Source: Asterionella formosa
Taxonomy: Eukaryota
DNA length: 49,582 bases
Reading direction: 5' to 3'
Assembly: GCA_002256025.1 (NCBI GenBank)
Contig: NKIB01013951.1
Location: forward strand, 1 to 49,582
Positions 5,889 to 49,432 of the stretch are shown here, piece by piece (position 1 is the stretch's first letter; each line of letters starts with the position of its first letter). Under the pieces are notes generated by a model that did not search any database, was not told the origin of the DNA, and saw only the letters and a list, made by a program, of their open reading frames with translations. The translations under genes were made by a program, and so were the position numbers.

Positions 5889-7607
5889 GCTCCAATGACT
5901 TTGGTGGCTTTCTGTTTTCTGCACTGTCTCTAGATACAGAAACAATTCCAAGGCTAGAGCCTGCACACTGATTGCAAATGAGCCTAAGACTGACGATCTT
6001 TGATTCATGATGGAGAAGCCAAAAAATCCTCTTGGCTCATCAAGATCAATAAGACAAGTTCTTGTAACTAAAGACCGTTGATAACAAATCTACTGATTCA
6101 GGAACACCTGAATTATCTTCTTCACAATCATCTGCTTCCAAGCCATCGACTTTGACTTCTCCTAATAAAGCTGTTGAACGCAGCCAGCAGTTTGAATGCC
6201 ATGGGATTGATGACTATCCAATCACATTTGATATATTGGATAGTGGACAATTGTTGGAAGTTAGGGCTTGTTTTCTAACTGTCCATTACAAGTTCTGTTA
6301 CAAAAATGAATAAATATCTTGTAAAAAAGGATAGATTTGGTGTCTCTTTTAAGATCTGCCTTTATTTGTCATCAGCCAATGCCAGGTACTCGAAAATAGA
6401 TATAAAGATATGCACAACAACATAATAATGCTTTTGTAATGAGTAAGAAGTTCAGGGGGGTAGTACTCTGGTAGCTTAGATGCAAAACTGGAAATATTAC
6501 TACTATGTAGTATGGCAAAAGAGCAACAAATCTGAAATCGAGATTTCAGAATTGGACTACATAACATGATGCTGGCAGTGGGGAGCATATCAATTTACTG
6601 CCTATTTGGGTAATTGCAACAATGATATTTATTCCATTACCTGTATATTACATAAAGATACCTACATACATCGCTATCTCTCGTCCTGTTTGCACATTGT
6701 CATTCAATTATTACCATTTACATCTAAGCCAAGTATTACATGAAGATCCTTTATGTAAATATGCATAGTTGATTTTGAGAGCAGGATCTTAGTTGGATTT
6801 TGAAATGAATTATTTAAACACCAACTAATTCAGCCTCAAGTTCAAAGTTCATCGTGAAAGCTTTACATGAAACCGTTAAAAGTAACCTTTTTTATGGGAA
6901 GTGTGGTATCATGAGGAAGTACCACATAATTATCAATCCTGCACTGATGAAATTTCGAAAAGTGGCGTGTTTCGCGGCTTAAATGTACTTCGCCTTTCGC
7001 TTTGATTGTTCCACCAAAACCTTGGAGATTTCAAGAGCAACAAAATGAACAATAGATCATGCTCGAGATTCCATATACCAATCATCACCTACTATTGCCT
7101 CCTTCAATTAGTTTATGTTAAATTTGTCCCACACAAACTTTCCATAAATTCAATGGTGTGGTATAGTGTGATTCACACCCTTGACTGGCGCATTCTTTGC
7201 GAGAGGATCCACCAAAAGAAGTTAATTGTCAAAATCAGACTTTTATAATTATCATCTTAGACAAAATATATATTTATAGTCTGTGTTTGACTACTACCAG
7301 GTACTGGTAGCTGGTACTCCAGGTAGTACAACAAGGTACCAGTACCTGGTAGCTGGTAAGTTGGTATTTACAATGATACATAATTGATTGTTGCGTTTTT
7401 GGTGATTCTATCAGCAACTAATATTTGCCAAGTCGCCGGGGGGTCATGTAACACATAATTGCTAATCGGGGGATGGAGGATGCAAAATTTAGTACATTTT
7501 GTAGCCCATTCGTAATCTTCTATTTCTATTGGCAAGTCACTAGTTTGTATGCACTTTTCGAACTAGTTGACACAAACCTGACCAAATTTTTTGTTTTCGA
7601 TTGAATG

Positions 7608-7741: not shown

Positions 7742-8531
7742 AACTAGTTGACACAAACCTGACCAAATTTTTTGTTTTCGATTGAATGCTCACTGGATCC
7801 AAATCGAGTTTCTCATTCCATGTGAATTCTTCTTCTTTCTCATGACAATACTTTGTTGAGCAAAACTCGACCAACATAAAAATGATTTTACATAATCTGT
7901 CAGCAAACCCCAAATCGATTATCGTTTTGCTTCCATGCATGTGAATTCTTCTTTTATTTTTATGGTAGATTTATTCAACAACTCAAAGCATGATGCTGGT
8001 CCTTGTTCATATAAGTCGATGCAAATCATAATATTTTTCTAGTTAATCTGTCAGCAGTCCTCTCAAACCAAATTTTACTTTCCATTTGAATTAGGTGTCT
8101 TCTTCATGATGATCGAATAACCTAATAGATCAAATCAGTATGTTTGTGCATTTGGACTATTTGGTGCCAATTAAATCTTAGCAGGCCCAAACCGCATTGT
8201 GATTTCGATCTGAATTGCCATTTGTTGTCATGATGCAAAATCATATCCAACAACACCTCGAAATAGCACCATATTGGTCCTGCTACTTCTTAGTCACAGG
8301 TGCATTGGGAACTATGTATAACCGGTCAACCGTACAAATTCATGTATGATTTCACACATTCATTTTTTGTAATGTGCTGACCCATTTCGACATCAAGTAT
8401 GGCATACGAACGGATTCTAGATTCCGTCCTGTGGTACTCTCGTGTGTAGAATTTATTGTATGTGATGCAGTCCCACTATCCCTACCTGTCAGATCAATCA
8501 AGCTATTACCGGTAGCTTTGTTTCTACATTG

Positions 8532-10033: not shown

Positions 10034-10821
10034 GAGTTTGCTGTGCTTTTGATTTCATTGCTCATCAATACACACTACATGTTGGTCTTTGTTGATGCTT
10101 TCCTCGCTCGCCGCAGTTTTTAACAGCAAGAAGTACCGGGTAGAGCTACCAGATACCAGGTACCAGGTACCATGCAATTTTGGCACCATGGCTGATGTGG
10201 CTGACGAGATTCAGAGGTAAGCACATACCGGTAATCATACTAATGGTACCAGGTACCTAGTACCAGGTACCGGTAGGCACCTACGGGTCGTTAACTCCGG
10301 GTCCCTGATATGGTACTAACAGGTAGGAGTACCAGTTAGTACGTAGTTGGACCATCGACACAGGCCACTACCGGCATCCGTGTACAAACCTTAATCCAAA
10401 GACCACAGAGCATTCGAAAAAGGTTCCAAAGTGTACTACCGTACTAGTAGACACCTCAAATCCTTCGATTAGGGGCTAAATAAAATTATGGGTTGAGGGG
10501 CCATCATTGCTTTCATGATAAGTTGCCAGTATGAGAAATGAACCTAGTCTGTAGCTAGAATAGTGCAGGTGAATGCAAAGATGCAACTTTGAATTTGTCC
10601 TTGGTTCATCTTTTCCATGATGTCCAATCTGCACTGTATTTGGCAACTTGTTTGCACTTACAGAAGTAGTCTGAGATTTCCATAACTATGGAGCTCAATG
10701 AAATCAAGTCTGTACTAATAGGCTATGGTTGATTTGCTATGGAAGTGATAGATGTATAAATATAGGGTTCACAGCATGAGTTGAGAAAAACAAAATTAAT
10801 CTTTCTCAGTATATGTAATTA

Positions 10822-11955: not shown

Positions 11956-12094
11956 TGTTGGATTTACTTTGTGTGATGGTTATTAGGGTCATTGCCATGT
12001 GGACTCGTACAACCAAGGTAGGTCCGTCCGGTAATCGAGATGTTTAGCTTAATCTTTTCGTAAGTTTAACCGTGTTTTACCGGACTTTCCAAGG

Positions 12095-12153
12095 TACCTG
12101 GTACCAGGTACCGTACCAGGTACCAGTCCGGAGGAACTACCTGGTACCGGTAC
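12095..12153. repeat. Chain of TA-delimited CC(N)GG units (representative of many upstream regions)
   Basis: TA-CCTGG-TA-CCAGG-TA-CCG-TA-CCAGG-TA at 12095-12122. Similar chains at 10154, 15177, 26409, 37537 and 37612. Confidence 0.9.
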
Positions 12154-20317: not shown

Positions 20318-20416
20318 AGGGAAATTACTTTGTTTGCTCAGCAATCAACCAGGAGAGTACACGTAGATTGTTTGAATAGAGCTTGCTTGTAACTATAATT
20401 TTCTCTACTGCTATTT

Positions 20417-22822
20417 TTATTCGTCTCCATCACTGTCACTCCAGTCAACACCTTCCTTTACCTCATCCTGCATCGCCATGGCCTTCTCTTTCGATATAGT
20501 AGGCTTGGATTCTACCTTCTTTGGTTCCTTCTTGGCCTTCTTCTTTGGAGTCGCCTCTACTGCCTTCTTCTCGCCTTCTTGCTGCTTGCTTGCTGGTCGA
20601 GAAGTAGACTCCAATCTATTCTCTCTGGCGATCTCCTTGTCATATCGTTCTCCCATGCTAAGTTCGCCGCCTCCTTTCAAGCACTCGAGACGCTTAACAT
20701 CTTTTGGCGCGTCTTGGAGAGTTGCTCTTGCCTTGACACAAAAGACAGCGTTTCGTTCGCACAGATCCACGCACCCTTTGCTATACGCCCGCCATCGATT
20801 GTTTTGGGTATCCTTAGAAAACTTTCGCAACCGTTGGCATATACGAACGGAAAACTCAGGAAAGCCAGCAGAGTAGCGGTAGAGGTCAACTTCTCTGTTA
20901 AGGAGGAGAAAGACTTCACTCACGCAAGCTTCGAGCTGCTCAGCAGTTCGTAAGGTGTCTTCCTTGGGCAACTTCAAAATAAGTGGCAGCTGAATGCTTT
21001 TAACAGCAGCTCGTCCTTGCACTCGCTTCGGCTTCAAGCCGATTTCCTTCAGGTCCAAGACTTCCAATAAGATAGATGTAGTAGGAATGAACATTTCGGC
21101 AGTAGCAGCTAGTTGTTGAAGAAAACGGACAAGATGAAGTCGAAGGGGCAAATGCCGTGTCGTTGGAATGAGCTTTGCAACACCTAGAATGACTTCCGTA
21201 AGAGGAAAAATGAGCGATCGAAGAAGCTGTACTTCCTGCTCTTCCTTGCCTTGCTTACATGCAGAAGACAAAACTGCAACCCAAAGCTTGAGGCAATGCA
21301 CATACTGCCAACAGTAAACGACTTGGAAGGCTTCTGGGGTCTTTTTATGCATCGCAGTTCGAAGATGTAATGCCAGCTGTCGAATGTAGACGAAAGCATG
21401 CTGATAGGCGGAGTGATAGTCGAGACTGTATAGTTCTACAATGCAGTTTCCCATAAAGGTCAATGTGGGGAGGATAGAGGTCAGCGATGAGGATGTCCCA
21501 AATTTGGCACGTTTGGCATAGGCTAAGTAGGTCTTTTTCAAACAGTCCTCAATAAAAGGAAATGGTTGTGTCAATGCCAGCTGTCTAATTCTCATAAATG
21601 CATTCAAACGGACAACTTGGTAATCCTCCGACGAGTCCAACGGAGCAGACCATAAGCCGACCAACGTTTTGAGCAAGTTTTGGGCGATCCGAGGAAAGGG
21701 AGTAAGGAACGGAACATACTTGGCAAGAGACTTCAAGATGAAAGTCAACAACTCGGGTTCCTTGGCACCATTGATGACATGCAAGGTTGACTTGAAGAAT
21801 GTTTGCATGACTGGTTTGATTTCTGTCCATCTGTAGGCCCGAGCGAGCACTTTCGGATTCATTGGCTTCTCATCCCCAGTAACCTCACCCTCGTCGTCAT
21901 TATCTTCCTCCATGACGTCATCGTCATGATTAATTTCCTTTTTTTCATCCTTGGGATTCACAGATCCTTTTCCAATCAAATGGTAAGTGAACTCTTCGTG
22001 ACAACGGTCAAGTGACAAGACCATTAACCTGTCGAACACTGCCGTTGACTCAATATGATATTTGGTTCCTGAGCGCTTCTGTTGGTCCTCATCATTTCCA
22101 TCTGCATCGGCCATATGACAAGCAGTCTTGTAGGCTGCTACAAGTTTTTTGAGTGACTTCAGTCCATGCGACTTGAATGCTCCTTGTTCAAGTGACTTTA
22201 GGAGAGGGTAGTCGACAACAGTGGCGTTGACATCTGGAACTTTCTTTTCTGGTTCTAGAACATCATCGCTGTCTTCATCCTCGTCAGCTTGTTCGTCGAA
22301 ATCTAATAAAGATTTTTCATTTTCTTTCAGGAACTTGTGAAAGTCAGGGTCAGATTTTTGAAGTCTCTCCATTTCGTCCTTCATTTTCGCAGCTGCAACT
22401 TCGATATCTTCCTCTATATCGCTATCTTCAGATCCCGAGCTATCGCCGCTTTCATCGTCAACTTCCACATCTAGTTCCTCTTCTTCGTCATCACTCTCGT
22501 CGTCTGCAACATTAGGTGCCTCAATCTCACCGCCCCCCTCAATCCTGTCGGCCATTTTCTCAAAAAAAGCGTCAACATCTAGACCTCCAAGATTCTCTTG
22601 TCCGAGGAAATCATTTTCATCACGTTTTCTAAGTTGTTCAGACTGCTGATGAGACATGACCGATTCGAGTTGTGCCTTTTTCTTTAGATCTACAGGAGCA
22701 ACGACTGTCTTGCGTTTTCTCTTGAGCTTTCCTTTGCTGGTAATCGTTCCCTTCTCAAGGGCTTTCTTCACTCCACCCTTGGATTGGAACTTGCGCTCCC
22801 TTTTGGTTTGTTTCTTTGCCAT
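20417..22822 (-). CDS. NOC2: Nucleolar complex protein 2
   Basis: LQKSDPDFHKFLKENEKSLLDF, AYQHAFVYIRQLALHLR, VYCWQYVHCLKLW, LRSLIFPL, AGFPE. Confidence 0.93.
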   Translation of the reverse strand: MAKKQTKRERKFQSKGGVKKALEKGTITSKGKLKRKRKTVVAPVDLKKKAQLESVMSHQQSEQLRKRDENDFLGQENLGGLDVDAFFEKMADRIEGGGEIEAPNVADDESDDEEEELDVEVDDESGDSSGSEDSDIEEDIEVAAAKMKDEMERLQKSDPDFHKFLKENEKSLLDFDEQADEDEDSDDVLEPEKKVPDVNATVVDYPLLKSLEQGAFKSHGLKSLKKLVAAYKTACHMADADGNDEDQQKRSGTKYHIESTAVFDRLMVLSLDRCHEEFTYHLIGKGSVNPKDEKKEINHDDDVMEEDNDDEGEVTGDEKPMNPKVLARAYRWTEIKPVMQTFFKSTLHVINGAKEPELLTFILKSLAKYVPFLTPFPRIAQNLLKTLVGLWSAPLDSSEDYQVVRLNAFMRIRQLALTQPFPFIEDCLKKTYLAYAKRAKFGTSSSLTSILPTLTFMGNCIVELYSLDYHSAYQHAFVYIRQLALHLRTAMHKKTPEAFQVVYCWQYVHCLKLWVAVLSSACKQGKEEQEVQLLRSLIFPLTEVILGVAKLIPTTRHLPLRLHLVRFLQQLAATAEMFIPTTSILLEVLDLKEIGLKPKRVQGRAAVKSIQLPLILKLPKEDTLRTAEQLEACVSEVFLLLNREVDLYRYSAGFPEFSVRICQRLRKFSKDTQNNRWRAYSKGCVDLCERNAVFCVKARATLQDAPKDVKRLECLKGGGELSMGERYDKEIARENRLESTSRPASKQQEGEKKAVEATPKKKAKKEPKKVESKPTISKEKAMAMQDEVKEGVDWSDSDGDE

Positions 22823-23299
22823 GCTTAATGATATACTGGTAGATGTTGTTGTTATTGACAGTCTCTATAAATATAAACTATACAATATCAAGGTACTGGC
22901 TGATGGTGACAGGTACCAGTAGCTATACTTCTGATATTTCTTTCCGAAAAGTGGACGAGGGGTAAAAATGCGGCACACTTGACATCCTCTGCCTCCGAGA
23001 AAATCACTGGTTCCGAGGAGAGAAGGAAAGAACCAATGCACGCCCCCATGTGATGATGAAATACTGACACCTACCGGTATTCTATGTAGTTCAAGGGTAC
23101 CGGGTACCCGGAGGTCCAGATATGCATACCCTACCGGGTATCACGCATCATATTTATGTCAAGAATATACCGGTATGTCGAAGCAAGTGATGAGCTCATC
23201 ATAATAATTATGAGTCGCAGTCGAGTGAGTCAACTTTGGGTGTACCAAGCACCCATTAACTATCACAAGATCTTATTCTGGGCATAATGAGCCTGAGGA

Positions 23300-24450
23300 T
23301 ATAAACTACTGGCTGGTATTCAGAAGACCAATAGTTTGAATGTAATGCTTATCAATGCTGATAAACCTATGATCAGTGAGTTTGAGGTAGACATGGGTCT
23401 AACTATAAATGTATGACCTGACAAAGAATGAAAACAGCATTGGAGAATAGTTCATTTGATTGCTTATTCAAATCTAATAACCAACTAAGCAACTAATAAA
23501 AGTAATAATTTAGCAACACAAGAGAAATGAATGTCTCTGGTTTGTATAACCTTCTTTGTCTAAGAACGATAGATCTACCTAGAAAGGCAAACCTGCCTTA
23601 ACAAGAATATAGTATCAATGTATCAGCCGACAATGGCAATAACGATTCACAAGGATTGTGGAATCGACTATTTGGTCCAATGAATCAATGGTGCGTTTCC
23701 ATGTCAACAATAGGCTTCTTACTTACAGGATTGATGTTTCAGATCAATCAGAATAAGGCTTGCTTGCATTGACAAAAAGGGATCAGCAGAGAATATTTTC
23801 TGAAATTGTGATGAATGGGATTGAAACAAAGTTTTGCTTAGTTTAAGCTTATAATTTAAGAAATTGACAGAGTAAGGTAAATAGCGAAAACTAGCAAGAA
23901 TCATAGGAGCAGAAGATACACAACAGTACTAGTACTAGCTACAACAGCTAAGTTCTACGTAAGGAGATTCGCCTGCAGGAAGGAGTGTGAAGCTTTTAAC
24001 AAAAACACACACCGAGTTGTATTTATATATTAACCAGGTACTCCTGGTAATAGTGTGAGTACTTGGGAGTACCTGCTGGTCCTCAGGAGTACCACGTAAC
24101 ACTCCTACATAATCATGATACCAAGTCCTGTTCTACATGTAGGTATGTTCTTGGAACTTGATGTTTGCCAGTACTGTTAGTAATGACAACATCATGACAA
24201 CTAACAATGATGATACGCCTATTGTAAGCAGATTAATCACGAATTATAAATCAATTGTTGTTTTTAGCTACTGATGTTTTAGTTTATATCTACGTGATGT
24301 ATGAAGATTATGTACAAACAATTTGGGTTGTGATCCCCGGCAAGGAATCTTATAGATATTGTCGCTGCGGTTGGGCACTACTTTGCTTCTGCCGATTTTC
24401 TATTTTAGCTATTTTTTATTGAAGAATATCAAAGTTACGTGAACATTTGT
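23300..24450 (+). mobile_element. Highly decayed Copia 3' end (RNase H remnant, polypurine tract, LTR-like sequence)
   Basis: Broken reading DMGLTINVxP...W...AYS and FHVNN resembles Copia LGLKIxP...W...YSDSD and VDN. Purine tract AGGAAGGAG 23977-23985 is directly followed by TGT at 23986. Boundaries are approximate. Confidence 0.45.
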
Positions 24451-24641
24451 TTCACTACTTGCTAGCAATACTTGTGTTCTATATAAGGAACTAATAAAAG
24501 TATAAAGCAGTTGTACAAAATTAAAAATTAAAAATCATTTTGTTTATTATGGTCTGTTAAATGGTAATGGGAAATTTCTCATGTTCCATTCATGATTGTA
24601 TAAATTTGTATACATGCATACATATATAGAACAAGCATGCA

Positions 24642-24810
24642 AGAAGGAATCGCTAACTAGATGGTTAGCTCACCTTCCGAGGTGGCGGGTTCAATTCCCG
24701 CATTCTCCACCTGCTTTGTTTGTGGTGAGGCAGACAATAAGCAGGTGTAAAGCCCTCCGGGGGGGGGGGCAAGTGCGACTTCACAACCTTCTCAATTGAC
24801 GAGTTTTTTT
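24642..24810 (+). ncRNA. tRNA-headed Pol III-type structured RNA or tRNA-derived SINE
   Basis: A-box-like TAACTAGATGG (24654-24664) and B-box GGTTCAATTCC (24688-24698) within a perfect T-arm GCGGG/CCCGC. Further hairpins follow, then a T7 terminator at 24804-24810. Confidence 0.65.
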
Positions 24811-24959
24811 AACAATAGGGTACTATAAAATTTACTCCCTTACTAAAATTTTTATAGAACATATATGTTGTGTATGTTCATATGTGTTAAATTGTCTAGC
24901 TTTATTCGTTACGAATATCACAGATCTTTCTTTTAAGATCACTAAAGCTGAAAACGTAT

Positions 24960-26180
24960 TTTCACCTAATACTTTGAAATATTTTGAGCTATCTGTAAAT
25001 ATTCTGCATATCTAGTCTTGTTCTTGCCTGATTACTCAAATAATCCTGAACAAGATATCTTACACTTTCCTTGATCACGACGTCAATATGATCTTGCTTG
25101 TTTTGAAAAGAAGTAGTCATCGCAATTCATTTATCAATAAGTGAGCATCAAAATTCATTTGAAAATAATTATCATCTTTTTGCTTGTAGAAGTTGTTGAT
25201 TTCATTGTTAATAGCAACGCTCCATTGCTTGCTCTCATCTCCTTTCAAATCCTCCTTGTAATGCTTTGGCTCCCAGCAAGAGCAGTAGAATACGCATGGA
25301 ACCTCTAAATTCCTTCTTCACTTTGAAACTGTTCACCATTTTCTTGAATGTCCAATTATGAAGTCTATCTGTTCAATTGATTTTTTTCCTTCTCATGATG
25401 TTTTAAGATGCGCCAAGCACTATGTTTGCATGTGGCTTCTTTCCAACCTTCTGGTAGTTTCGATTCTTGTTCAATTTTTTCTTTGATGCATCATTTTTGA
25501 TCTTATCATCTGATTTCCCATTGCTTCAGAAAGCTGAAATCAAGTTTTTTCACAACTGGAACAGGTGTTTACAAAACGTTATTCTGAACAGGTGGCACAA
25601 CCACAGCAGGAGCAACATGTTCATCCTGCTTGTCATCCTCCATTGGAACATCAAATATTTCTGTGCCCCCTTCCACATTGAAATCCTTTAAACCTGCAAT
25701 TTCATCTGATCCTGCCAAATTGCATTAGATGATCGTAAATTATTGGAACCTTATTACAGAACCTCTCATCTGCACCTTTTACATCATTAGATGTGGCCAC
25801 AATGTTGGTGATTCTTGTTTTGGTGTTGATTGCCTCAGCCCAAAGTAAACCTTGGAATTAATCATTGAATTTTGCAGCAAACATTGCTGCACATGCTCAT
25901 TGATGAATGTTTACAAACTTTTCCTCAACAATTTCATTCTGTTGCTGTGTGTAGGATACCGTAAATTCAATTTGAAATTTGATTTTTCACACAGTTTTGT
26001 TAAACATGATACATTTTCGCCCACATCATTGTCACAACGGATATACTTAGTAGTGTACTTAGCCGTTTTCAATTTAGTCAACAAATCTTCAATCTTTGAA
26101 GCAAGTTGTGACTTCTTCTTGACAAAGAAACTACAAGATTGAAAGTGCATTCTAGAAATGTAGTGGTGGTATGCGTACAC
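24960..26180 (-). mobile_element. Decayed Ty1/Copia pol fragment (integrase core and start of RT)
   Basis: FFVKKKSQL...KYIRCDNDVGEN (IRCDNAGEN-type), LWAEAINT, EPKHYKE...KQWSVAINNEINNF, with stops and frameshifts. Confidence 0.8.
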
Positions 26181-26588
26181 TACTAGTATGACCGACATTG
26201 AAAAGTACGTGCTTGATTAGTCTGACTCAATATTTTTTTAACCCTACCTCGAGCTAGGGGTTCAAAGTATATCACACACCGGGTACCTGTACCCGGTATC
26301 AGGAAAATGACTGACCTCATTTTCCTTTTCTCGTCGCTCTCGAGACGATGCATAATTGAGTGCAACGCCAAGAGAAAGAATTACGGTACCTGGTACCCCC
26401 ACTGTATGTACCAGGGTACCTGGTACCTGGTACCGGTAGAGGGAAAATTACCTCTTCGTGTTTTGTGGACAGGTCGATCTATTATTGGCTCGGCGTTGCG
26501 TATCTGGGAGTGATTCGTTTCCTCAGTGGTAAACCTTTAGATTGTCCTCAAGGTTGCTTGAATTGAGTGTTATGTGCAGGCCCAAAGT

Positions 26589-27755
26589 ATGAATACGAAG
26601 ATATGTCTCCCCTTGATCCTCTCGTACGTGAGCGCAACGGCATTCGCTGCCCTAGCCATTCCTGTATTATTTGATGCCAGTAATAATTTGCATCGGGATC
26701 TCAGATATCACCCCGAGCAACCCGCGAGAATACAAAACTGTGTGGATGCCATACGCACATACATGGGAAGCACATGTGATATTCCTCCTATTGCTTTGAT
26801 GGATGTCTCAGATTCGTCGGAGAACCGATTCACGGAGGAAGAATTAGCCCATGCTAGAGCATGTCTTGTACTGGCCCATTCGGAAGATCTTGTCAGTGGC
26901 ATTGAACAACGCTGCATGAACTCTCGACAGAAACGCATCAATGACGGGAAGGAACCTCTTGGGTTTATAGGAAACGTCGATGATGATACGTTCCTGACAA
27001 CGGAAACGTACAATGTCTGCCTCCGAGCCACGGCGGCGTGGATACGATGCGTCGATCTTGCCATGAGTACACGTGGGTCTGCCATGGCACTGACGCGGCC
27101 TCCAGGACATCATGCTACATCCACTTTGATAAATGGTTTCTGCATCTTCAATTTTGCAGCCGCGGCTGTCATTCATGCTTTGCAAGGGGGTTCTGACATA
27201 AAAGTTTCGGTTCTGGATTGGGATGTTCATTATGGGCAAGGTGTTGTTGATATTCTCAAAAAGTACGATCGAGCTCGATACGTGTCCATTCATCAAACTC
27301 CAGCCTTTCCGTTCATGGGAGAATATCGCAAGGTGGATGGAGCATTCAAGAATATTCTCTCAATACCTATTCCACCTGAAACAACATGGACATGTGGATA
27401 TTCTAAAATGTTTCGGGAGCATGCTCTTCCCTTTGTCCGATTGACAAGTGGGGATGACCCCTGGGAGCCCGATCTGGTAATTGTGTGCTCTGGATATGAT
27501 GCGTTGGACAGTGATGAATTGGCGAGTGTCAGTTTGCAAGCTATAGATTATGGCCTCCTTACGTCAGAACTACTGTCGCACTTGTCGGTAGGAATCAACA
27601 AGCGTCCTGCATTGATGCTAGGTCTGGAGGGTGGTTATCAATTGAGCCCTATGGCAGTTGGAGGCAATCTGGGAGATGCCGTCGTTGAGACAATCAAGGC
27701 GCTGGTAAGGGAAGAAGCAGGTAGGGCTATACATTCACGCAAGAATGAGAAGTAG
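26589..27755 (+). CDS. Zn-dependent histone deacetylase family protein with signal peptide
   Basis: HPEQPARI, RPPGHHA, GFCIFN, DWDVHYGQG, SIHQ, SGYDA, LEGGY are all intact. N-terminus MNTKICLPLILSYVSATA-FAA. Confidence 0.92.
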   Translation: MNTKICLPLILSYVSATAFAALAIPVLFDASNNLHRDLRYHPEQPARIQNCVDAIRTYMGSTCDIPPIALMDVSDSSENRFTEEELAHARACLVLAHSEDLVSGIEQRCMNSRQKRINDGKEPLGFIGNVDDDTFLTTETYNVCLRATAAWIRCVDLAMSTRGSAMALTRPPGHHATSTLINGFCIFNFAAAAVIHALQGGSDIKVSVLDWDVHYGQGVVDILKKYDRARYVSIHQTPAFPFMGEYRKVDGAFKNILSIPIPPETTWTCGYSKMFREHALPFVRLTSGDDPWEPDLVIVCSGYDALDSDELASVSLQAIDYGLLTSELLSHLSVGINKRPALMLGLEGGYQLSPMAVGGNLGDAVVETIKALVREEAGRAIHSRKNEK

Positions 27756-28514
27756 GCTTATCATAATTGTGGGACCTTCATCAAGCAGCAAATGCGATGC
27801 ATCTTTATACATAGACACTGCACTACTTTGTCGCAATTTACATCAGGCCAGTTATCAATGCTGACTAGGTTATAGAATACTATGTTGATATTCTTCATCA
27901 ACTGGAATCAGCAGGAATCTACGCACTAGACAGCATGTTGACTTGATTCAATGAAACTTGAAAGTCCATCTGAGAAAAATATTATGATTCCATGTGCAAT
28001 CTGTAGCAGGTTATAGGTTTACTACTGTCAGAATATGATTGTTAGGCTGTTGCTGTTGACAAGTGCCTGAAGGCCAGATGAAGTCTGAGGAATGTCAGAA
28101 TGTAAATAAACACTGCATTGAAAAAACCCAAGCCAAATACAGTTGCAGGTTGCATTACACATCATGGTGTGTCACATTGGGAGAAAAAGCAAAAAATATT
28201 GTAGCCAGTGCATCCACCAAGACCAAATTGCTTTGGTCTTGGTAAACTATGACCTCCCAATTAACTTAAGCAATATCAGGTATTTGGTCTATCAGGCTCC
28301 AACCGTAGTCTAATAAAAGAAGCATTTCTATTGGTCTAGGTTATGGCTTCCATCAGAAACATATTTAATCTATGGTTTAATTAGGAGTGTACACATAATT
28401 AGAAAACATAAACAGTACTATCTTCATGTAGACAAATATGATCATCAGTAGACACAGTACATCAGTTTGATTTCGACACATACATACAGACATTATTTAT
28501 TCAACATCGTCAGG

Positions 28515-37330: not shown

Positions 37331-37967
37331 GATGGTGTCGTATACCTGTATCTACTATGTAGAAGTACTCGTTGCTCAATATTTTTGTCAGTGTGCCTAT
37401 TTTAGATAAGCTATGAGCGAAATAGCAAGCAGTGCCAGTTGCTCGTCTTTGTTATTCGTGTTCCGTATGAAAAGTGTGATTATTGTACCGGTCGCACAAG
37501 GCATGGTACCAGTACTACCTGTTACGGTGGTTGAAATACCCGGTACCTGGTACCAGGTACTCCTTCCTGCCTGGTGGTAAGCACGTTGATGGTCAATGTC
37601 CACTGCCTTGGTACCAGGGTACCCGTACCAGGTACCTGGTATCAGTAAAATGATGGGAGTACATACCGGTATGAATCCTTTTCGTAATCATCATGTGGCT
37701 ACATACTGCTGGTATCATCGTAACCGGTACTTCAATGTGTCACTACAGTACTTGGATCTCGACTTCGTTTGCCCTCATCCGCCCAATCGAAAGAGTCTTC
37801 TCCTTTTGCGTTGTTGCAATACGGATAGTCTTCACTAGCTACTCAAGTCTGATATAGAGGGAAACCATGAACGTTTAGTGAAGGGAAACGTAAAACTTCC
37901 ATCTTGATTACCTGGTACTCTACTACCACTCAAGTAAAAGTAACTCTGTCCCAACAATACATTGAAC

Positions 37968-40882: not shown

Positions 40883-41518
40883 TTAGTCATGAACCTCCAA
40901 GCCGATGAATCCAACAATTCCCTTCTTCTTCATTTTAGCGAAACCACCAACAGAATTGTCAATCAATGATTCTGTATTTTTCATGTAAAATCCAGATGGA
41001 TCCGGAAGACCGACAAAGCCAATATTCTTTTCAATGTCGTCAGGCATGTCGACTTTTCCGGCCACAACCACCACTTCGTCTCCTTTCATATAGGCCCACT
41101 CTAGAGTATCCTTGGCAAATATCTGTAGAGGAAATAGCCGTCGAGCGTGCTCTGAAATCAGGAGACGCTGCCGAATGACAGCAGCCTCCGTGTAGGCGTT
41201 ATCCTTGGTTCGAACCGTTCCCACCTGCAACCACTCATCAGCCGGAGGATCACTAACCACTCGCACGGCCACGACGAAGGTCTCCGCAGTCTTGAGGTCT
41301 AGATAACGATCCCATTGTTGTTTCGGCTTTAACTTGCTATCGCTCTTTTTCTTGTCGTTCTTGGCAGCGCCAAAGCCAGACATGAAAAGACGAGACGACG
41401 AGGAAGCAAATGTTGCATGTCGCTGCACGAGGTTGGCGCCTCCAACGAGTGGTGGCGCTGTCAAGAACGCTTCCGCTGATGCTGCGACCAAAAGTAACAG
41501 ACATGTAATTCGCTGCAT
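40883..41518 (-). CDS. Hypothetical plastid-targeted protein
   Basis: Signal peptide MQRITCLLLLVAASAEA-FLT followed by a Ser/Arg-rich transit peptide (SSSSRLFMSGFG). Confidence 0.8.
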   Translation of the reverse strand: MQRITCLLLLVAASAEAFLTAPPLVGGANLVQRHATFASSSSRLFMSGFGAAKNDKKKSDSKLKPKQQWDRYLDLKTAETFVVAVRVVSDPPADEWLQVGTVRTKDNAYTEAAVIRQRLLISEHARRLFPLQIFAKDTLEWAYMKGDEVVVVAGKVDMPDDIEKNIGFVGLPDPSGFYMKNTESLIDNSVGGFAKMKKKGIVGFIGLEVHD

Positions 41519-41728: not shown

Positions 41729-44700
41729 TGTCAGAATTGGATATTTGGTTTTGAATCAAATATACCGCCATCATTACCTGTACCACCATCACTTCCAGTC
41801 TATAATATATAGCTCACAATTTCTAATAAATACTTTAGGAATTAGTCGTCATTACAAACCTTCCGCTTCTACAAGTTAGAACAACCTCAAGAGTCTACTT
41901 CATCCAGCCTCATTGCAAGAGCTGTTGACAGTAATATTCATCTATAACAAGTGGTTATGAGCCTAACATTATAAGAAAATAAATAAAGCTTCCATTAGAT
42001 TACAAGATCAATGACCATGTCTAATCCAGTAAATCTTCCAAACGTTCCCCCACAGAGAGGAGGTATTCATACCACATATGGCATCTTCATTGGAGGTGCT
42101 CAACTTGATGACACTTACCACCTTCTACCAAACCGAAGCACTTATAGATTCTCAATGCAACATTGTCAAGAAAAAACGATTGCTTCCATTGAACAGAAGC
42201 TCAGAGATGCACGCGATTCTGTAACCACTGTCAAGTTCAATGGACAACTTGAAGCAACTGCTGGACTGTCTACTGAGATAGGAAAAGGAAAATTCATCAG
42301 TATGTTGAAAGAAAAGGTGAAAGAGCATGCCCAACAAACCTTCTATGCATTCAAGGACAATGATGGAACAGTCGTTGACCTATTCAAACACTCTCATCCT
42401 TAAAATTTGTCACTGTTGTGGATGAGTTTGCTCGTCGCGCAGATACAACCAATATTGACTTCCAAGCCTTTGATCAGTATGAGTTAGAACATGTTGAATT
42501 GTCACACATGCTCGTGTTTTCTCAAGGAATTACCTTGACCTTGTTCTGTGAGAAAATGGAAATCAGATTTGACCATCGAGTCGATTTTGAGTACCTCTCC
42601 GGTGCTTTTCTATTCATGATGGCCTTAGAAACCTGCAATGCATCCATCTCCCATGATGTCGAAGGGGCACGCAACCAACTTGATGGCCTCACTCTTGACT
42701 CCTATCCGGGTGAAAATGTGACGGATTTTACCACTGAAGCACATCGTCTTATCAAAATCATGCAAGGTGACTACGCATTGCCTGTCAATACTGGTTCCAA
42801 ATTGATTCAGAAGGTCACAAAAACTTCGTGTGAGTACTTCAATCGTAAAATGTACACCCTCCTTGATGAAGTCAAAACACTTGAGCATGAGTACAACCTG
42901 TCCGATCCTAAGACACTCACCAAGGACCCCAAAAAAAGTTTGGCCCACTGGGAGTCATTGCAATTTTGCAAGCAGCTCATGGAGCTCTTCTATCTGAACT
43001 TGATTGGCCTGCTCTGGCAACCAAACTCCCAGAAGCCAATCTCTCGATGAACACCAGTGCAAACACCCGCACTTGCTATCGCTGTGGAAGTGGTGATCAT
43101 CTCTCTCGCGACTGTCCCCAACCTCCTGCTTGCATATCCAACACTTGTAAACATTCTGCTGCTCTGGCTGATTGGAAATACATCAAGCCAGATAACCTTA
43201 CTACAACCAAAACTGATGACCTTGGACGAGTTTGGAAATTCTGCACAAAGTAAAAGTATCGGGCCTCCAACAAGATTGGATTTTATCAGCTTAGTCACTT
43301 GGACTTGGCTCACCTTGATAACTATCGTGCCGGTCAGCGAGCTGCCACAACCAAACAACCTGCCAGCTCCCTTTTGGACACCACCAATGGTCCCACATCG
43401 CACAAAACTGCTCCACTCCACCAGACACTCCACAGAGTAATATTTCAGCAGTTGCCAACCCTAACCCCATTCCTGCCGGTCCTCCTGATATCACTACCCC
43501 TACTCCTTCCACAACTACCACTGAACCACTGGACGATATGACCTTTACTAGGGCATGGTGTGCTCCTGTTATCCATCCACTTGATGTCGACCTGTCAGTT
43601 TGCGGATACACTCCTACTCCAGCTAGTACCTTCAGTGAGAGCGAAACAAACGTGAACACTTCTGTCATTGAGAGGGAGAATAAAAATAACATGATTGTGT
43701 GTGAGACACATACAAATCTGGAGTGCAACAACAACAATGACATTGCTGGGGAGGACCTGAAACTGCCAAGTGACTCGATCCAGTCAACATACCTTATCAT
43801 GAAAATCCTATTTTGGTTTAGTGCAATATTCTGGGATACAGTGGCATACTTTATCCTTTCTTCCCCATCTGATAATCCTGCGTGCACACTGCGCCGATTC
43901 AAACAGAAGAATATTCCTGTACCTTTCATTTTTGCACCAGCGTCATGGATGCTATTGACACATTCCATTCTACTTTTGCCTGGGATATTTTATGGTCACA
44001 AGAATCTTCCAACCTTCCACACTGTCAAGGATCTTGTCAACACTCAATCGGCTGCTATGTATGACAGAATCACACAACTTGAAATGATGATTGACCTTGA
44101 TTGGACGGCTCTTTGGAACTTCAACCACATAAAATGGAAAAGTATTCACAATGATCTCAACCCATGTGTTCTTGAATCCACATCTGTGAAAGCCTCAACA
44201 CCCAAGACACCATATGATCCATTTCACTTTCACGACCTCTGTGCTACCCGCCACTGTGTTGACTGCATACATGACTCAAATGCAACTGTGTTAGCAAATA
44301 CCAAGGAGGATCCAACATGCAACCAATCAACAACTCAAGTTATGGATGTTCTTACCGATATCGATATCTTAGCACATGACCCGTACTCTTTGTTCACAAT
44401 GGCAAACACAACGTCCGCAGTAATCTTCGATACAGGAGCATCATTGGGAATTACACATGACATACAAGACTTTGATGGGCCACTTACGATTCCAGACTGT
44501 GATCTTCGACTTGGGGGTATGGCCAACGGATTGAAAATAGAGGGAGTTGGACCAGTTACATGGACATTCAGCAACAAAGGCGGCACAGAAGTGCAGATTC
44601 GCAACCAATGATACTATGTCCCTCAATCCAAAATGAGACTGATTAGTCCACAACGTCTGTTCAATAAAGAAAAAGGAGTAAGTGGATGGTACAAGGGTGA

Positions 44701-47700
44701 TGAAAGAATCATTCAGGCTTCAATTCGATGTGTGTCCTTGTCTGATTGCTTGTTGAGTATGAACCCAGAAATCACCTCCCAATTGGGCAAGCCAGGATTG
44801 GATCGGGACTGTTCTGCAGGTGAACTTTGCCTTAACCAACGAGGGTAATCAAAACATTAGTTCTGGTCAAAAACTTCTTTTAAACTGGCATTTTCGTTTT
44901 GGACACTTAAAATTACCAGCAGTTCAACGAATACTGCGTGCATTCCCATTCACCGCCAATCGATTCGCCTCAGCATCCAAATGCAATGCATTTGACCTAA
45001 AATGCGAGATCTGTCAATACTCTAAAGGACACCGTCGTCCAACACATTCTTCCACAATCATCGCAAATCCTGAACGAACTGGCGCACTGAAGGCTGAAAA
45101 TCTTGGACCTGGTGTTAGAGTTTCCGTTGATCACTTCGAATCTCGTCTTTTAGGACGCACCTTTGACTCCTTTGGAAAACCATCAGCAGACACCTACAAA
45201 GGGGGCTGCATATTTGTGGATCATGGCACCGGATACATTCAGGTGGAGCACCAATTGGGATTCTCTGCTGTTGAAACCATCAGAGCAAAACAAAACTATG
45301 AGCAACAGGCAATGGACAATGGTGTCATTTTACAATCCTACCTCACTGACAGTGGAGCATTCAAGGCAAACTCTTTTGTTCAACACATTCGAGAACATAC
45401 TCAGCGTCTTCAATACTGTGGAACAAATGCACACCATCAAAATGGTGTAGCAGAATGGGCTATTAGAACAGTATCTGACATGGCACGCTCAATGATTCTC
45501 CATGCTTCCAGTCATTGGAAAGGAGGGATCGACAGCACACTTTGGCCTATGGCAGTTACTTACGCTGTGCACCTTTACAACAATCATACACCAAATAATC
45601 AATTCCTTTGCCCAGCTGATCTCTACCCTGGAAGCACAATTCCCAGACATCGACTGTGAGATCTTCACACTTGGGGGTGTCCAGTGTATGCTCTTGACCC
45701 AACTCTTCAGTCTGGGAAGAAATTGCCTAGGTGGCAACCACAATCACGACGATTTGTGTTCCTTGGATTGAGATCCATTCACTCCAGCGAAGTCCCCGTC
45801 TGCCAATAAAAACCATCATAATTCCATGATGCATCATGGGATTATGATCATCTGATCATAATTTTTCGTTATATCATCTAATAATTTTGATAAATGCCCT
45901 CGTAATTTATATAGTAACCCTTTTGACTATGGAAATTTGATTATTATATGTATTGTTTCTTTTAGTTTCCTTTATTTAAATTTCTTGGTAGGATGATGTA
46001 CCAGTTAGAGTAATGTGGTTTGGCTCATCAGCCCCTTGGTCCTTAATTTGCAAACTGGGAGTATTACCACTCAATATCATGTGGTTTTTGACGACGGTTT
46101 CTCCATGGTGGCGTCAATTGGAAAAGATGAAGACCCTCCTGAATACTGGGACGATTTGTGTCTGGAAAATACAACCTACATACCGAACGATTCAAACACT
46201 GAAACACCAATGCATCTTCAAGACGACTGGCTCACTTCAGATGAACAAGCACAAAAGCGGAGGGAGCTGCATCGACAACAGTGGATTCGTACCACATTTT
46301 CCCCCACACACTCCATTACGGCAGCTTCACCACCTGAAGGACCATCAACACCAGCAGAACAAAATATCGGCATGTTAGAGGGAGCATCTGCTCCAATACC
46401 TCCTCCTAAAACACCTGTTCCACTCAGCACTGATAGTGCCCTCACAAAACACATACCAGATTCTATTGCAATTAATCCTATTGCAAGTTCACCCCACTCT
46501 TCACCACCAGTGCCAGCAGTTCGACGATCTGAAAGAACAAATAAGGGTCAGTATAATCGTACAAAATATATTGACGAAGTATATTTGACCATGCTGGATC
46601 AAACCAAGCATGACAATTTCAACAAGAAGCAACTGGCATATTCAGCAGAATTACTTACCTGTTTTGACACAGGTGTTCACAACAATACTGACCCTAAACA
46701 CGCCGCAAAGATGACCCTGATTCTCTAACGTTTCATCAGGCTATTCATGGCAAAAATTGAGAAGAGTACATTAAAGCCATGCAAATAGAGATTGCAACAC
46801 TCATTCTTCAATGTACCTGGGAATCTGTGCCAAGAACTGCAAACCTCAATGTATTAAAAGGTACATGGGTATTCAAACTGAAACGGCTCCCAGACGGCAC
46901 ACCTTATCGCTTCAAAGCACGCTATTGTGCAAGGGGAGATCTCCAAAAGGAGGGCATTGACTTCTTCGAGACCTATTCACCTGATGTTCTTTGGTCTACC
47001 ATCCGCTTGCTATTATTAACTGTTCTCACTGAGGGCTAGTCAACCGTCAAATCGACTACACCAACGCATTTGCTCAAGCCGATCTCAAAGAAGAAGTATA
47101 TCTGGAATACCCTCGCATGTTTGGACCCAAGTCCGGCACCAATAAAGTGTTGCGACTGGTAACAAGGCTATATGAACTTCGTCAAGCTCCTCGCACCTTC
47201 TTTGAGAAGATTCGGGAGGGAATTTTGGAACGTGGGTACACTCAATCTCAAATTGATCCATGCTTGTTCATGAAACAAGGAATTATTTGTGTCTGCTATG
47301 TCGATGACACCATATTTGCTGGAGCGGAATCATTTGTTCTTGAAGCTGAAATCCAAAGCCTTGGCGTCCATGAAAAGTAACAGAGTCAAACTTTTGCACT
47401 TAGAAATGAAGGGGAAGTTGGTGCCTTTCTTGGAATTCAAATTTTAAATACTGGACTGCAGGAATATAATCTCACTCAAACCGGACTAATTGACAAAGTC
47501 CTTGCAGCAACTGGCATGTCTGATTGTAATGGAGTGGATACACCATCGACTACTACTCCATCAGGAATCGATTTCGATGGAGATCCGTTCACTGAAACCT
47601 GGCAATACAATTCAATCATTGGCATGCTGATGTTCCTGTCTGCGAATACCCGCCCAGATATTGCTTATGCTGTTCATCAAGCCGCTAGATTCTCCCATGC

Positions 47701-48357
47701 CCCACGTCATTCTCACACTATTGCCGGTTGCCGCATTCTTCGCTATTTGCAGCAAACAAAAACCATGGGGCTTCTGTTGAAGCCAACAAATACACAAAGG
47801 GTGGATTGTTATGTCGATGCCGATTTTGCAGGTCTTTTTGCTGTTGAAAATAATCAAGATCCCATTTCAGTCAAGTCCCGCACTGGCTATGTTGTGCTGT
47901 ACAAAGGGAGCCCTCTCCTCTGGGTATCCAAGGTGCAGACTCAGATTGTTGCCTTGAGTACCATGGAGGCCGAATATGTGGCTCTTTCTCAGGCGATGCG
48001 CGACCTCATTCCAATTCGTGAAATACTCAAAGAATTTATGGCCGTTGTATTCGAAATTCAACCAAGTATTGCATATCATGCGCATTTCAAATCGTTCACA
48101 GATGTTGCGGAGGGTACTGTTCCTTATCATGCCATCGATCAATCAATTCTCTATGAGGATAACCATTCTTGTCTAAAATTTGCATGCATGGCACAACTAT
48201 CTCCTCACACCAAACACATCGGCATTCCATATCACTGGCTTCGCACGAATTGTCAACCTTGATATCCATATCGAACCTATTAACACCAAAGACCAGCTTG
48301 CCGATCAGTTCACCAAAGGTCTTTGCACTGTCAAATTTCAGGCTGCTTGGCTGCTTC
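41729..48357 (+). mobile_element. Near full-length but inactivated Ty1/Copia (CoDi-like) retrotransposon, 3' LTR missing
   Basis: LTR-like sequence ends ...ATAACA at 41949, then PBS-like GGTTATGAGCC 41953-41963. gag from 42011; CCHC CYRCGSGDHLSRDC; protease VIFDTGAS; integrase WHFRFGH..CEIC, VSVDH, TDSGAF, HHQNGVAE; RT YVDD; RNase H YVDADFAG, QLADQFTKGL. Many stops and frameshifts. The 5' boundary is approximate. Confidence 0.93.
45798..46031. mobile_element. 234-bp AT-rich insertion in the Copia integrase region, flanked by a CCCC duplication
   Basis: Removing 45798-46035 restores GAA GTC CCC TTG GTC CTT AAT (SEVP-LVLNL). CCCC occurs at 45794-45797 and 46032-46035. Confidence 0.8.
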
Positions 48358-48495: not shown

Positions 48496-48886
48496 TAATT
48501 TATTCGGGTTAAACAAAAATTTATTTCCTTAATCGAATAATTATGTGTGTTCGTGACAATATATGTTGACCAACTAGCCATCGCGACAGTAAAAAAGCGA
48601 AATTATGCTGCTCCGCCACAATATTATGCTGCTTTCACCATATAATGAACGAAAGAGTCGCCAATTCCGATTCACTATTATTTTTTCCGCTCCGACATAT
48701 TTCTTTGATCTGAACTGGCAAAGAATAACACATGCAAGAGGAAGATTCACACAGTAGAATTCAGCACACGTAGTAGTGGTTGATGTTGTAGACACATTGT
48801 TTAGTCATTGTTGATTGTAGAGATTACAATAGCCTGCCAGATTAGAAATAAAGCACCGTTGGTACTTGTTGAGCATCGTTGAGCAT

Positions 48887-49432
48887 TGCATGTCTCCGTA
48901 GTGAGTCGAAATTGAGATGTGCCACAATGGCCTTCTCTGTTTCAGAGCAGTTACAATAGTCTACAGCGATAACTCTAACAAGTACAACATAGAAAAATAA
49001 TTAAAGGATGAGTAGCTGCCTGTCAACGATTGACTTTGTAAATTCGTTAAGAAACAGCTGTTGCATATTACAACATTCAATGCGTGTCGCTGTAGTGAGT
49101 AAAAATTGAGATGTGCCGCAATGGCCTTCTCCTATTCGGAGCATCTACAAAAAGTCTACAGCGATAACTCTAGCAAGTACAATATAGAAAAGAAAGCAAA
49201 GGATGAGTAGCTGTCAACGATTGAATTCGTAAATTCGTTTAGAAACAGCTGTTGCATATTTTAACATTTAATGCATGTTGCCGTATTGCTTCGAAATTGA
49301 GATTTGCCGCAATGGCATCCTTCTTTTTGGAGCAGCTACAAATACTCGAAAGAGCGATAACTCTAGCAAGTACAATATAGAAAAAGAAGGAAAGAATGAG
49401 TTGCTGTCAACAATTGAATTAGTAAATCAGTA
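48887..49432. repeat. About three tandem diverged ~192-bp units
   Basis: Units start at 48887, 49081 and 49272; shared AAATTGAGAT.TGCC.CAATGGC...AGCGATAACTCTA.CAAGTACAA.ATAGAAAA...CTGTCAAC.ATTGA. Confidence 0.92.

Follow-up and report, generated by a model that had tools for sequence, protein, structure and literature searches.

A decayed copy of a multi-copy, anticodon-less tRNA-like element in an intergenic spacer of the diatom Asterionella formosa

Genomic setting of the element

The window, that is, the whole stretch of 49,582 nucleotides that was analysed, was found to be gene-dense eukaryotic nuclear DNA harboring PPR, Noc2, histone deacetylase, ammonium transporter and HHL1-like genes. 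Protein relatives carrying an organism name or tag (13 rows, two of whose tags we take to be those of diatoms) all read as diatoms and displayed 47-55% identity, with further relatives reaching 78-80%. The HHL1-like protein (40883-41518, minus strand) and the product of 26589-27755 (plus strand) begin with signal-peptide-like N-termini ending in ASAEA↓F and SATA↓F, respectively, a pattern known from diatom plastid-targeting presequences. Elsewhere in the window, an exact 47-nt direct repeat lies at 7561-7607 and 7742-7788, 181 bp apart in an AT-rich spacer, and a tandem array of units of about 191-195 bp that are 73-91% alike occupies the window end (48884-49427).

The tRNA-like element described herein resides in the 3.7-kb spacer between the Noc2 gene (to 22822) and the deacetylase gene (from 26589), of which positions 23117-26574 proved, upon contig comparison, to be a patchwork of repeats in which breakpoints and back-joints are numerous. 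About 350-450 bp from the element lies a decayed Ty1/copia fragment (25156-26162, minus strand) running from the integrase core to the start of the reverse transcriptase (RT). This fragment, whose short open reading frames (ORFs) alone yielded no Pfam match, was recognised by a representative search and by tblastn of residues 615-1003 of P0034, a 1509-aa polyprotein from a public assembly, together with other copia polyproteins; rve, SH3_retrovirus or copia-gag Pfam domains were present in eight of the 10 copia-fragment hits scanned. It consists of blocks 73-84% identical to P0034, is interrupted by in-frame stops and a frameshift, and is truncated on both sides. Insertion of the element into a copia RT gene was considered and rejected, since the homology to P0034 does not extend beyond residue 1003 (about 25156) and the element is not flanked by any RT remains. 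Between 23100 and 25160, none of 24 ORFs had a credible Pfam match, and no transposase remains were seen. At about 42000-48262 on the plus strand, remnants of gag_pre-integrase and RVT_2, spread over several ORFs, mark a second copia-type element that is longer; tblastx of the spacer against it returned no detectable similarity. The RT and integrase remains of the window are all of copia type, and no LINE or other partner RT was found in it.

Several other features of the spacer were recorded. Its most abundant piece, 26199-26266, carries the palindrome AACCCTACCTCGAGCTAGGGGTT after the word TTTTTTTAAC, reached a summed bin depth of 444,226 in the DNA run X1 (see below) and had loose ends in 82 X1 contigs at 26231 and in 69 at 26266; the word TTTTTTTAAC recurs after the body of the tRNA-like element, at 24804-24813. 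One X1 contig of about single-copy depth (839) and one contig of a second DNA run, X6, join 23893 to 26415, thereby skipping 2521 bp including the whole repeat block with the element, and may represent an allele or strain devoid of this block; the joint has only 20 matching letters on one side. Clusters of a GGTACC-type palindromic word (GGTACCNGGTACC and variants) occur in spacers beside gene starts, at 26408-26439, 10146-10276, 12089-12113, 37540-37641, 23090-23130 and 26270-26300. These words are the sole similarities of the 23.1-26.6-kb spacer to other parts of the window and could correspond to a promoter or boundary motif or to a repeat terminus.

Structure of the tRNA-like head and comparison with known RNA families

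The head of the element occupies 24643-24711 on the plus strand, as read from the sequence, from its minimum free energy (MFE) fold and from an end-to-end alignment to an Rfam model. From 5′ to 3′, it is made up of a 5′ acceptor strand, a D-like arm, a mini-hairpin, a T-arm, the 3′ acceptor strand ATTCTCC, a discriminator A and an encoded CC. The D-like arm pairs GCTAAC (24652-24657) with GTTAGC (24664-24669), carries GG in its loop and overlaps an A-box-like region starting at T24650. The anticodon and variable arms are absent and, in their place, stands the mini-hairpin CACCT-TCCG-AGGTG (24671-24684), a 5-bp stem capped with a UCCG tetraloop. The T-arm GCGGG-TTCAATT-CCCGC (24685-24701), which also gave a local match of 13.9-16.7 bits to the T-arm of tmRNA models in Rfam, is canonical and perfect, and contains the B-box-like word GGTTCAATTCC (24688-24698). 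Internal Pol III promoters consist of an A box and a B box; compared to their consensus, the B-box word is exact, and the A-box-like word TCGCTAACTAGATGG, which starts at 24650, at a tRNA-like spacing of 38 nt 5′ of the B box, has one deviating position in the window copy. The acceptor pairs GGAAT (24646-24650) with ATTCT (24702-24706) and is followed by CCA (24707-24709); it holds one A:C and one A:A mismatch. An alignment to a permuted tmRNA reads the 3′ end of the head as ..UCUCCA-CC, the standard register being acceptor strand, discriminator A and encoded CC.

Past the head, a long hairpin pairs CACCTGCTT (24708-24716) with AAGCAGGTG (24739-24747). It is followed by a GC hairpin, GCCCTCC-G11-C (24752-24770), whose G11 run (24759-24769) is length-variable, one X1 contig of about single-copy depth having four bases fewer at 24761. 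A possible end-to-end pairing brings together AGAAGG (24642-24647) and CCTTCT (24787-24792). The first run of at least four Ts met 3′ of the head is a T7 run (24804-24810) resembling a Pol III terminator. Upstream, TATATAGA is found at 24623-24630.

The stems, the CCA and the T7 run were thus confirmed at the positions where the sequence-only reading had placed them, and every listed helix was present in the MFE fold of the 171-nt segment 24642-24812 (plus strand). This fold reached -69.7 kcal/mol compared to an average of -51.8 for shuffled sequences (z = -3.98), a stability that not one of the 200 shuffles attained. The 66-nt head alone folded to -25.3 kcal/mol (z = -3.31; one of 200 shuffles as good). 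Because the minus strand of the same stretch folded well too (-58.3 kcal/mol, z = -3.74), the strand is left unfixed by folding alone. When up to three mismatches were allowed, the 18-nt T-arm word occurred once in the window compared to 0.03 occurrences expected, and no second copy of the element was found within the 49,582 nt.

That the element fails as a canonical tRNA, as had been predicted, was borne out. ARAGORN called no tRNA gene in the whole window and made no call at the element under any of six settings, which included thresholds lowered to 60%, intron mode, metazoan-mitochondrial mode (which covers tmRNA genes too) and tmRNA mode. Rfam returned no match at gathering score over the whole window, so that no known family accounts for the element at that score, and no tRNA (RF00005) row at E up to 10. 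The best Rfam match at this threshold, on the opposite strand, was to a tRNA-shaped plastid model of 75 nt, scoring 24.1 bits compared to a gathering score of 65.7. It aligned end to end over 24643-24710 with deletions of 2 nt and 5 nt, i.e., with 7 nt missing at the anticodon/variable region and, judging from its printed consensus, the model looks like an antisense plastid tRNA. The tmRNA models of Rfam matched the T-arm and 3′ end only, at 13.9-17.3 bits versus a gathering score of 47, and the ARAGORN tmRNA search at the element was negative; mascRNA-type Rfam models did not match it. With canonical nuclear tRNAs (RF00005), the element shares a cloverleaf-like order of arms, the T-loop TTCAATT and a GG in the D loop; unlike them, it has a 4-nt instead of a 7-nt anticodon loop, is devoid of a variable loop and goes uncalled by detectors. 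Together, these features support the tRNA-derived origin that the sequence-only reading had proposed.

A family of diverged copies and the state of the window copy

The region 20400-27800 was compared, at a likeness of at least 85%, with the contigs of four public runs, namely DNA runs X1 and X6 and RNA runs X14 and X24. The runs holding this stretch are labelled as algal and freshwater metagenomes, X1 being a metagenome-type sample, X24 a poly(A) RNA run from the same sample and X14 a metatranscriptome. X1 depth over the whole 23117-26574 spacer was far above that of the flanking genes and, in the bin 24599-24845, amounted to 123,725 compared to 720-1200 in flanking single-copy genes, these figures being summed contig depths and not copy numbers. 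Twenty-nine X1 contigs matched the window from 24658 and 29 matched it up to 24721, with loose ends at both places followed by divergence; 13 X6 contigs parted from the window sequence at 24713. The shared core thereby delineated, about 24658-24721 (~64 nt), has its start inside the D arm and reaches 4-12 nt further than the 3′ end of the tRNA-like part. Given this overhang, the copies are not ordinary tRNA genes. From the diverging flanks, we infer that they are dispersed.

Two X24 contigs (records 20 and 21) span 24662-24713 and 24665-24721 with seven differences over 52 positions and five over 57, respectively, and no gaps. Because both align gap-free through the anticodon-less hairpin with its 4-nt loop, this hairpin is a trait of the family and not a deletion private to the window copy. 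Copies, as expected of the repeat that the sequence had suggested, were thus found for the head (at least 29 X1 contigs and 13 X6 contigs), and the anticodon-less hairpin is common to them. Beyond 24721, the relatives agree among themselves (0.81) in displaying a T-rich spacer and then a CCC..GGG/G-run motif, which resembles the GC hairpin of the window without being identical in sequence. Upstream of 24658, they are less uniform (agreement 0.53), with a G-rich 5′ acceptor strand and a shorter D stem. This difference in agreement would fit a 5′ boundary of the element near the tRNA start. In the consensus of the X6 relatives, a T4 run directly follows the head and conserved sequence continues downstream of it. 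In one poly(A)-RNA contig, the core (to 24721) continues into 24808 onward with 29 matching letters; similarity to the window therefore resumes after the T run, and 24811-24852, ending in AAAATTTT, is a possible 3′ part of the element. Other collections yielded no further relatives: a scan of metagenome contigs with a 20-nt core word returned seven loci, all unrelated (GC 0.49-0.69); public genome contigs gave no match to the element and viral contigs three unrelated high-GC loci and otherwise none; and a protein collection searched with the open plus-strand frame across the element produced no candidate.

Compared to the contig consensus, the window copy is both altered and decayed. Upstream of 24658, it carries 3 extra nt that make its D stem unusually long and, because the consensus is without these 3 nt, such a long and perfect stem is peculiar to this copy or to a subfamily. 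G-to-A changes relative to the consensus account for the A:C mismatch in its acceptor, the 5′ strand of which is degraded. The body, 24722-24807, is of low copy, at about 6-10 single-copy equivalents (summed X1 depth of 5332 at 24755 and 7877 at 24806 versus about 720-1200 for single copy), and its extra hairpins are therefore not hallmarks of the family; of the long hairpin 24708-24747, the 5′ half (to 24721) belongs to the conserved core and the 3′ half to the low-copy body. Position 24806 is a C in 21 X1 contigs that make up 75% of the depth (5903 of 7877), so that the T7 run is interrupted there and reads TTCTTTT. In these points, the sequence-only reading was accordingly not supported. 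The element had been called young, at odds with the 5/57 and 7/52 differences from the two RNA-contig copies and with the degraded 5′ acceptor strand; the T7 run had been presented as a terminator, and is interrupted in most of the depth at 24806; and the extra hairpins, listed with the element, belong to its low-copy body. Its remark that the flanking transposon DNA is decayed, on the other hand, holds for the copia fragment with its stops and frameshift.

The ends of the window copy were sought in its flanks. A 9-bp direct repeat, TATAGAACA, is a candidate target-site duplication with copies at 24625-24633 and 24853-24861 (plus strand, direct repeat search) that bracket 24634-24852 inside one TA/CA-rich low-complexity tract. 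A shared word of at least 9 nt was met in the flanks of 184 of 3000 dinucleotide shuffles (P = 0.061), making this a weak repeat. A 3′ end at 24852 is suggested by this candidate repeat only, and would place 42 nt of the element beyond its own T7 run. In one X1 contig, which may represent an empty paralogous site, 24541 is joined to 24866 and the core piece is missing, the joint comprising 20 letters with unknown letters in between. No terminal inverted repeats were detected around the element beyond AT words of 7-8 nt (no inverted pair of at least 40 nt), and an A-rich, simple-repeat or LINE-like tail is absent, the candidate end reading AAAATTTT. Most likely, the window holds an old, inactive copy of the family extending over about 24634-24852.

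Origin of the family

We see about an even chance that the element belongs, as an old and dead copy, to a tRNA-derived SINE-like family, i.e., that it is a non-autonomous retroposon of the SINE type. In the family, the anticodon and variable arms have given way to the 5-bp stem with the UCCG tetraloop. Active members would be transcribed by Pol III with TFIIIC from the A-box-like and B-box sequences within the head, through the variable body and up to a T run, and the RNA would then be turned back into DNA by a reverse transcriptase acting in trans. In favor of this scenario are the tRNA-type promoter words, the many diverged copies with a common head, bodies that differ between subfamilies and a host diatom that is rich in retroelements. 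The encoded CC following the discriminator suggests descent from a mature, CCA-tailed tRNA and, thus, an RNA intermediate; this CC, the 24541-24866 joint and the 9-bp repeat each lend weak support. Against it stand the T4 run right after the head of X6 relatives, the absence of an A-rich tail and the lack of a LINE partner in the window. The element resembles tRNA-derived SINEs, which are class I retroposons, in its short length, its tRNA-like head with A/B-box-type words, its diverged copies, its T run and a possible 9-bp duplication; it differs from them by the tight 5-bp/UCCG hairpin, the encoded CC and the absence of an A-rich or LINE-like tail or of an identified partner. The RNA evidence comprises other copies of the family inside longer poly(A) and metatranscriptome contigs, and assembled contigs show neither transcript ends, strand nor small RNAs. 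The summed X14 depth of 270 in the element bin, compared to 3-7 in the flanking genes, is thus no proof of transcription, nor is the finding that no X24 contig covers 24643-24810 at an identity of at least 99% evidence of silence.

The main alternative, unlikely in our estimate, is a reading in which the minus strand is the functional one, with an LTR ending in ...GCA at 24712-24714, followed by GG and then by a primer-binding site (PBS), TGGAGAATGCGGG, and a long stretch antisense to the primer tRNA that encompasses acceptor, T and D parts without an anticodon loop; the locus would then be a truncated LTR retrotransposon or TRIM within copia debris. The minus strand does present CA, 2 nt and TGG, complementary to a CCA-ended tRNA, and the encoded CC, which fits pairing to a mature tRNA, agrees with this reading equally well as with a SINE. 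Conservation in the family extends 12 nt past the CCA and is stronger there (0.81 compared to 0.53 upstream); a 2023-nt poly(A) contig carries the core 138 nt from one end, as in the R-U5-PBS region of a retrotransposon mRNA; and the nearby copia fragment has the same orientation. The extra pairing boxes of Ty1 are separate, short boxes. The element is a contiguous 62-68-nt antisense tRNA including the 5′ acceptor strand. In register 1, moreover, the position that would pair with A76 is mismatched. In the portion of the published account available (PMC3592414), known PBSs measure 10-18 nt and Ty1 is described as pairing with its primer tRNA beyond a 10-nt PBS via Box 0, 1 and 2.1, antisense, as in our element, to the acceptor 3′ end, T and D regions and not to the anticodon loop. 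The likeness further includes an adjoining CA dinucleotide and a copia-rich setting; the element departs from the Ty1 PBS by its contiguous full length and by the lack of a paired LTR or of gag/pol in the window. Indeed, no second LTR copy (a repeat of 24712-25150) was found anywhere in the window, and no gag/pol remains were found on the minus strand at 23100-24643 (no credible Pfam match in 24 ORFs; no P0034 match past residue 1003), so that a truncated LTR copy is what may possibly be left. Because boundaries of other repeats fall at about 24885-24914, 24712-25150 does not behave as one LTR, and the low copy number of 24722-24807 also argues against it. If this reading were true, the locus would feature an unusually long primer-tRNA pairing region.

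Quite unlikely, too, is the carriage of the tRNA-like module at the DNA level by another repeat, such as a DNA transposon, a Helitron, a MITE or a segmentally duplicated cluster of tRNA pseudogenes, the module then lacking a Pol III/RT cycle of its own. The mosaic structure of the 23117-26574 spacer with its breakpoints and back-joints, the conservation of sequence downstream of the T4 run in X6 relatives and the missing A-rich tail are all compatible with such carriage. The conserved unit, in contrast, is very short (about 64 nt) with diverging flanks, terminal inverted repeats and transposase remains are wanting as described above, and the encoded CC points to an RNA intermediate.

We consider it very unlikely that the copies are expressed Pol III genes for anticodon-less tRNA mimics, of which the window would hold one gene or pseudogene. 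Their product would be a minihelix-type RNA processed by RNases P and Z, like mascRNA or organellar t-elements, and possibly CCA-tailed or aminoacylated. The intact T-arm and the conserved tetraloop-capped hairpin would suit such RNAs, as would the TATA-like and CAA motifs upstream (24623-24641) with a T run downstream, the T-rich trailer directly after the head in X6 relatives, like that of tRNA genes, and the raised X14 depth. G3:U70 and a discriminator A are alanine identity elements, and the 5′ strand GGGGGAA of the contig consensus (agreement only 0.53) would give precisely this combination. The narrower proposal that the family consists of diatom Pol III genes for UNCG-capped minihelix RNAs with an alanine-type acceptor end appears more doubtful still. 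The core differs by about 9-13% between copies, far above what is usual for functional gene families of the tRNA type; the acceptor of the window copy holds A:C and A:A mismatches; DNA may be present in RNA libraries, and a small RNA cannot be recognised from contigs; and the locus sits within transposon debris with no Rfam match, mascRNA-type models included. The element shares with the mascRNA of MALAT1 the retention of acceptor and T-arm, a layout recognised by RNase P, RNase Z and the CCA-adding enzyme, and a reduced anticodon domain. Unlike mascRNA, which is a single, position-conserved signal at a transcript end, it is a dispersed nuclear repeat, and this multi-copy status argues against a single-locus processing signal of the mascRNA type. 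Were the mimics real, they would undergo RNase P/Z processing and perhaps CCA-tailing or charging, and could serve, for example, as decoys for tRNA-binding enzymes; alternatively, TFIIIC-bound DNA might act as a chromatin boundary between transposon debris and genes.

Finally, it is scarcely credible that the element is a lone decayed tRNA pseudogene or that its hairpins came together by chance: ARAGORN and Rfam were silent over this AT-rich, repeat-laden region, as such an origin would have it, yet the multi-copy core with the same gap-free, anticodon-less layout contradicts it, as do the 0.03 chance occurrences expected of the T-arm word and fold z-scores of -3.3 to -4.0.

Whether the element is a SINE or part of an LTR retrotransposon, the copy at this locus is dead, and no role for the neighboring Noc2 and deacetylase genes is evident. 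Diatom SINEs appear in the searchable literature as "putative" pipeline categories only, as far as the accessible portions of the two reports go: a "Putative SINE" category of 13 copies and 1,454 bp in Phaeodactylum, given as the first in a diatom (PMC5859163), and SINEs reported by a repeat pipeline in Cyclotella cryptica (PMC7466962). Our literature search met no paper describing the structure or Pol III promoter of a diatom SINE, and the CoDi paper (PMC2806351) has no text on PBS, tRNA or SINE. Should the SINE-type origin hold, Pol III-driven retroposition in diatoms would become accessible through a defined tRNA-derived family that can be recognised by its head. Such a family would bear on the question of which reverse transcriptase serves such a family in copia-dominated genomes, and would supply insertion markers for freshwater diatom populations.
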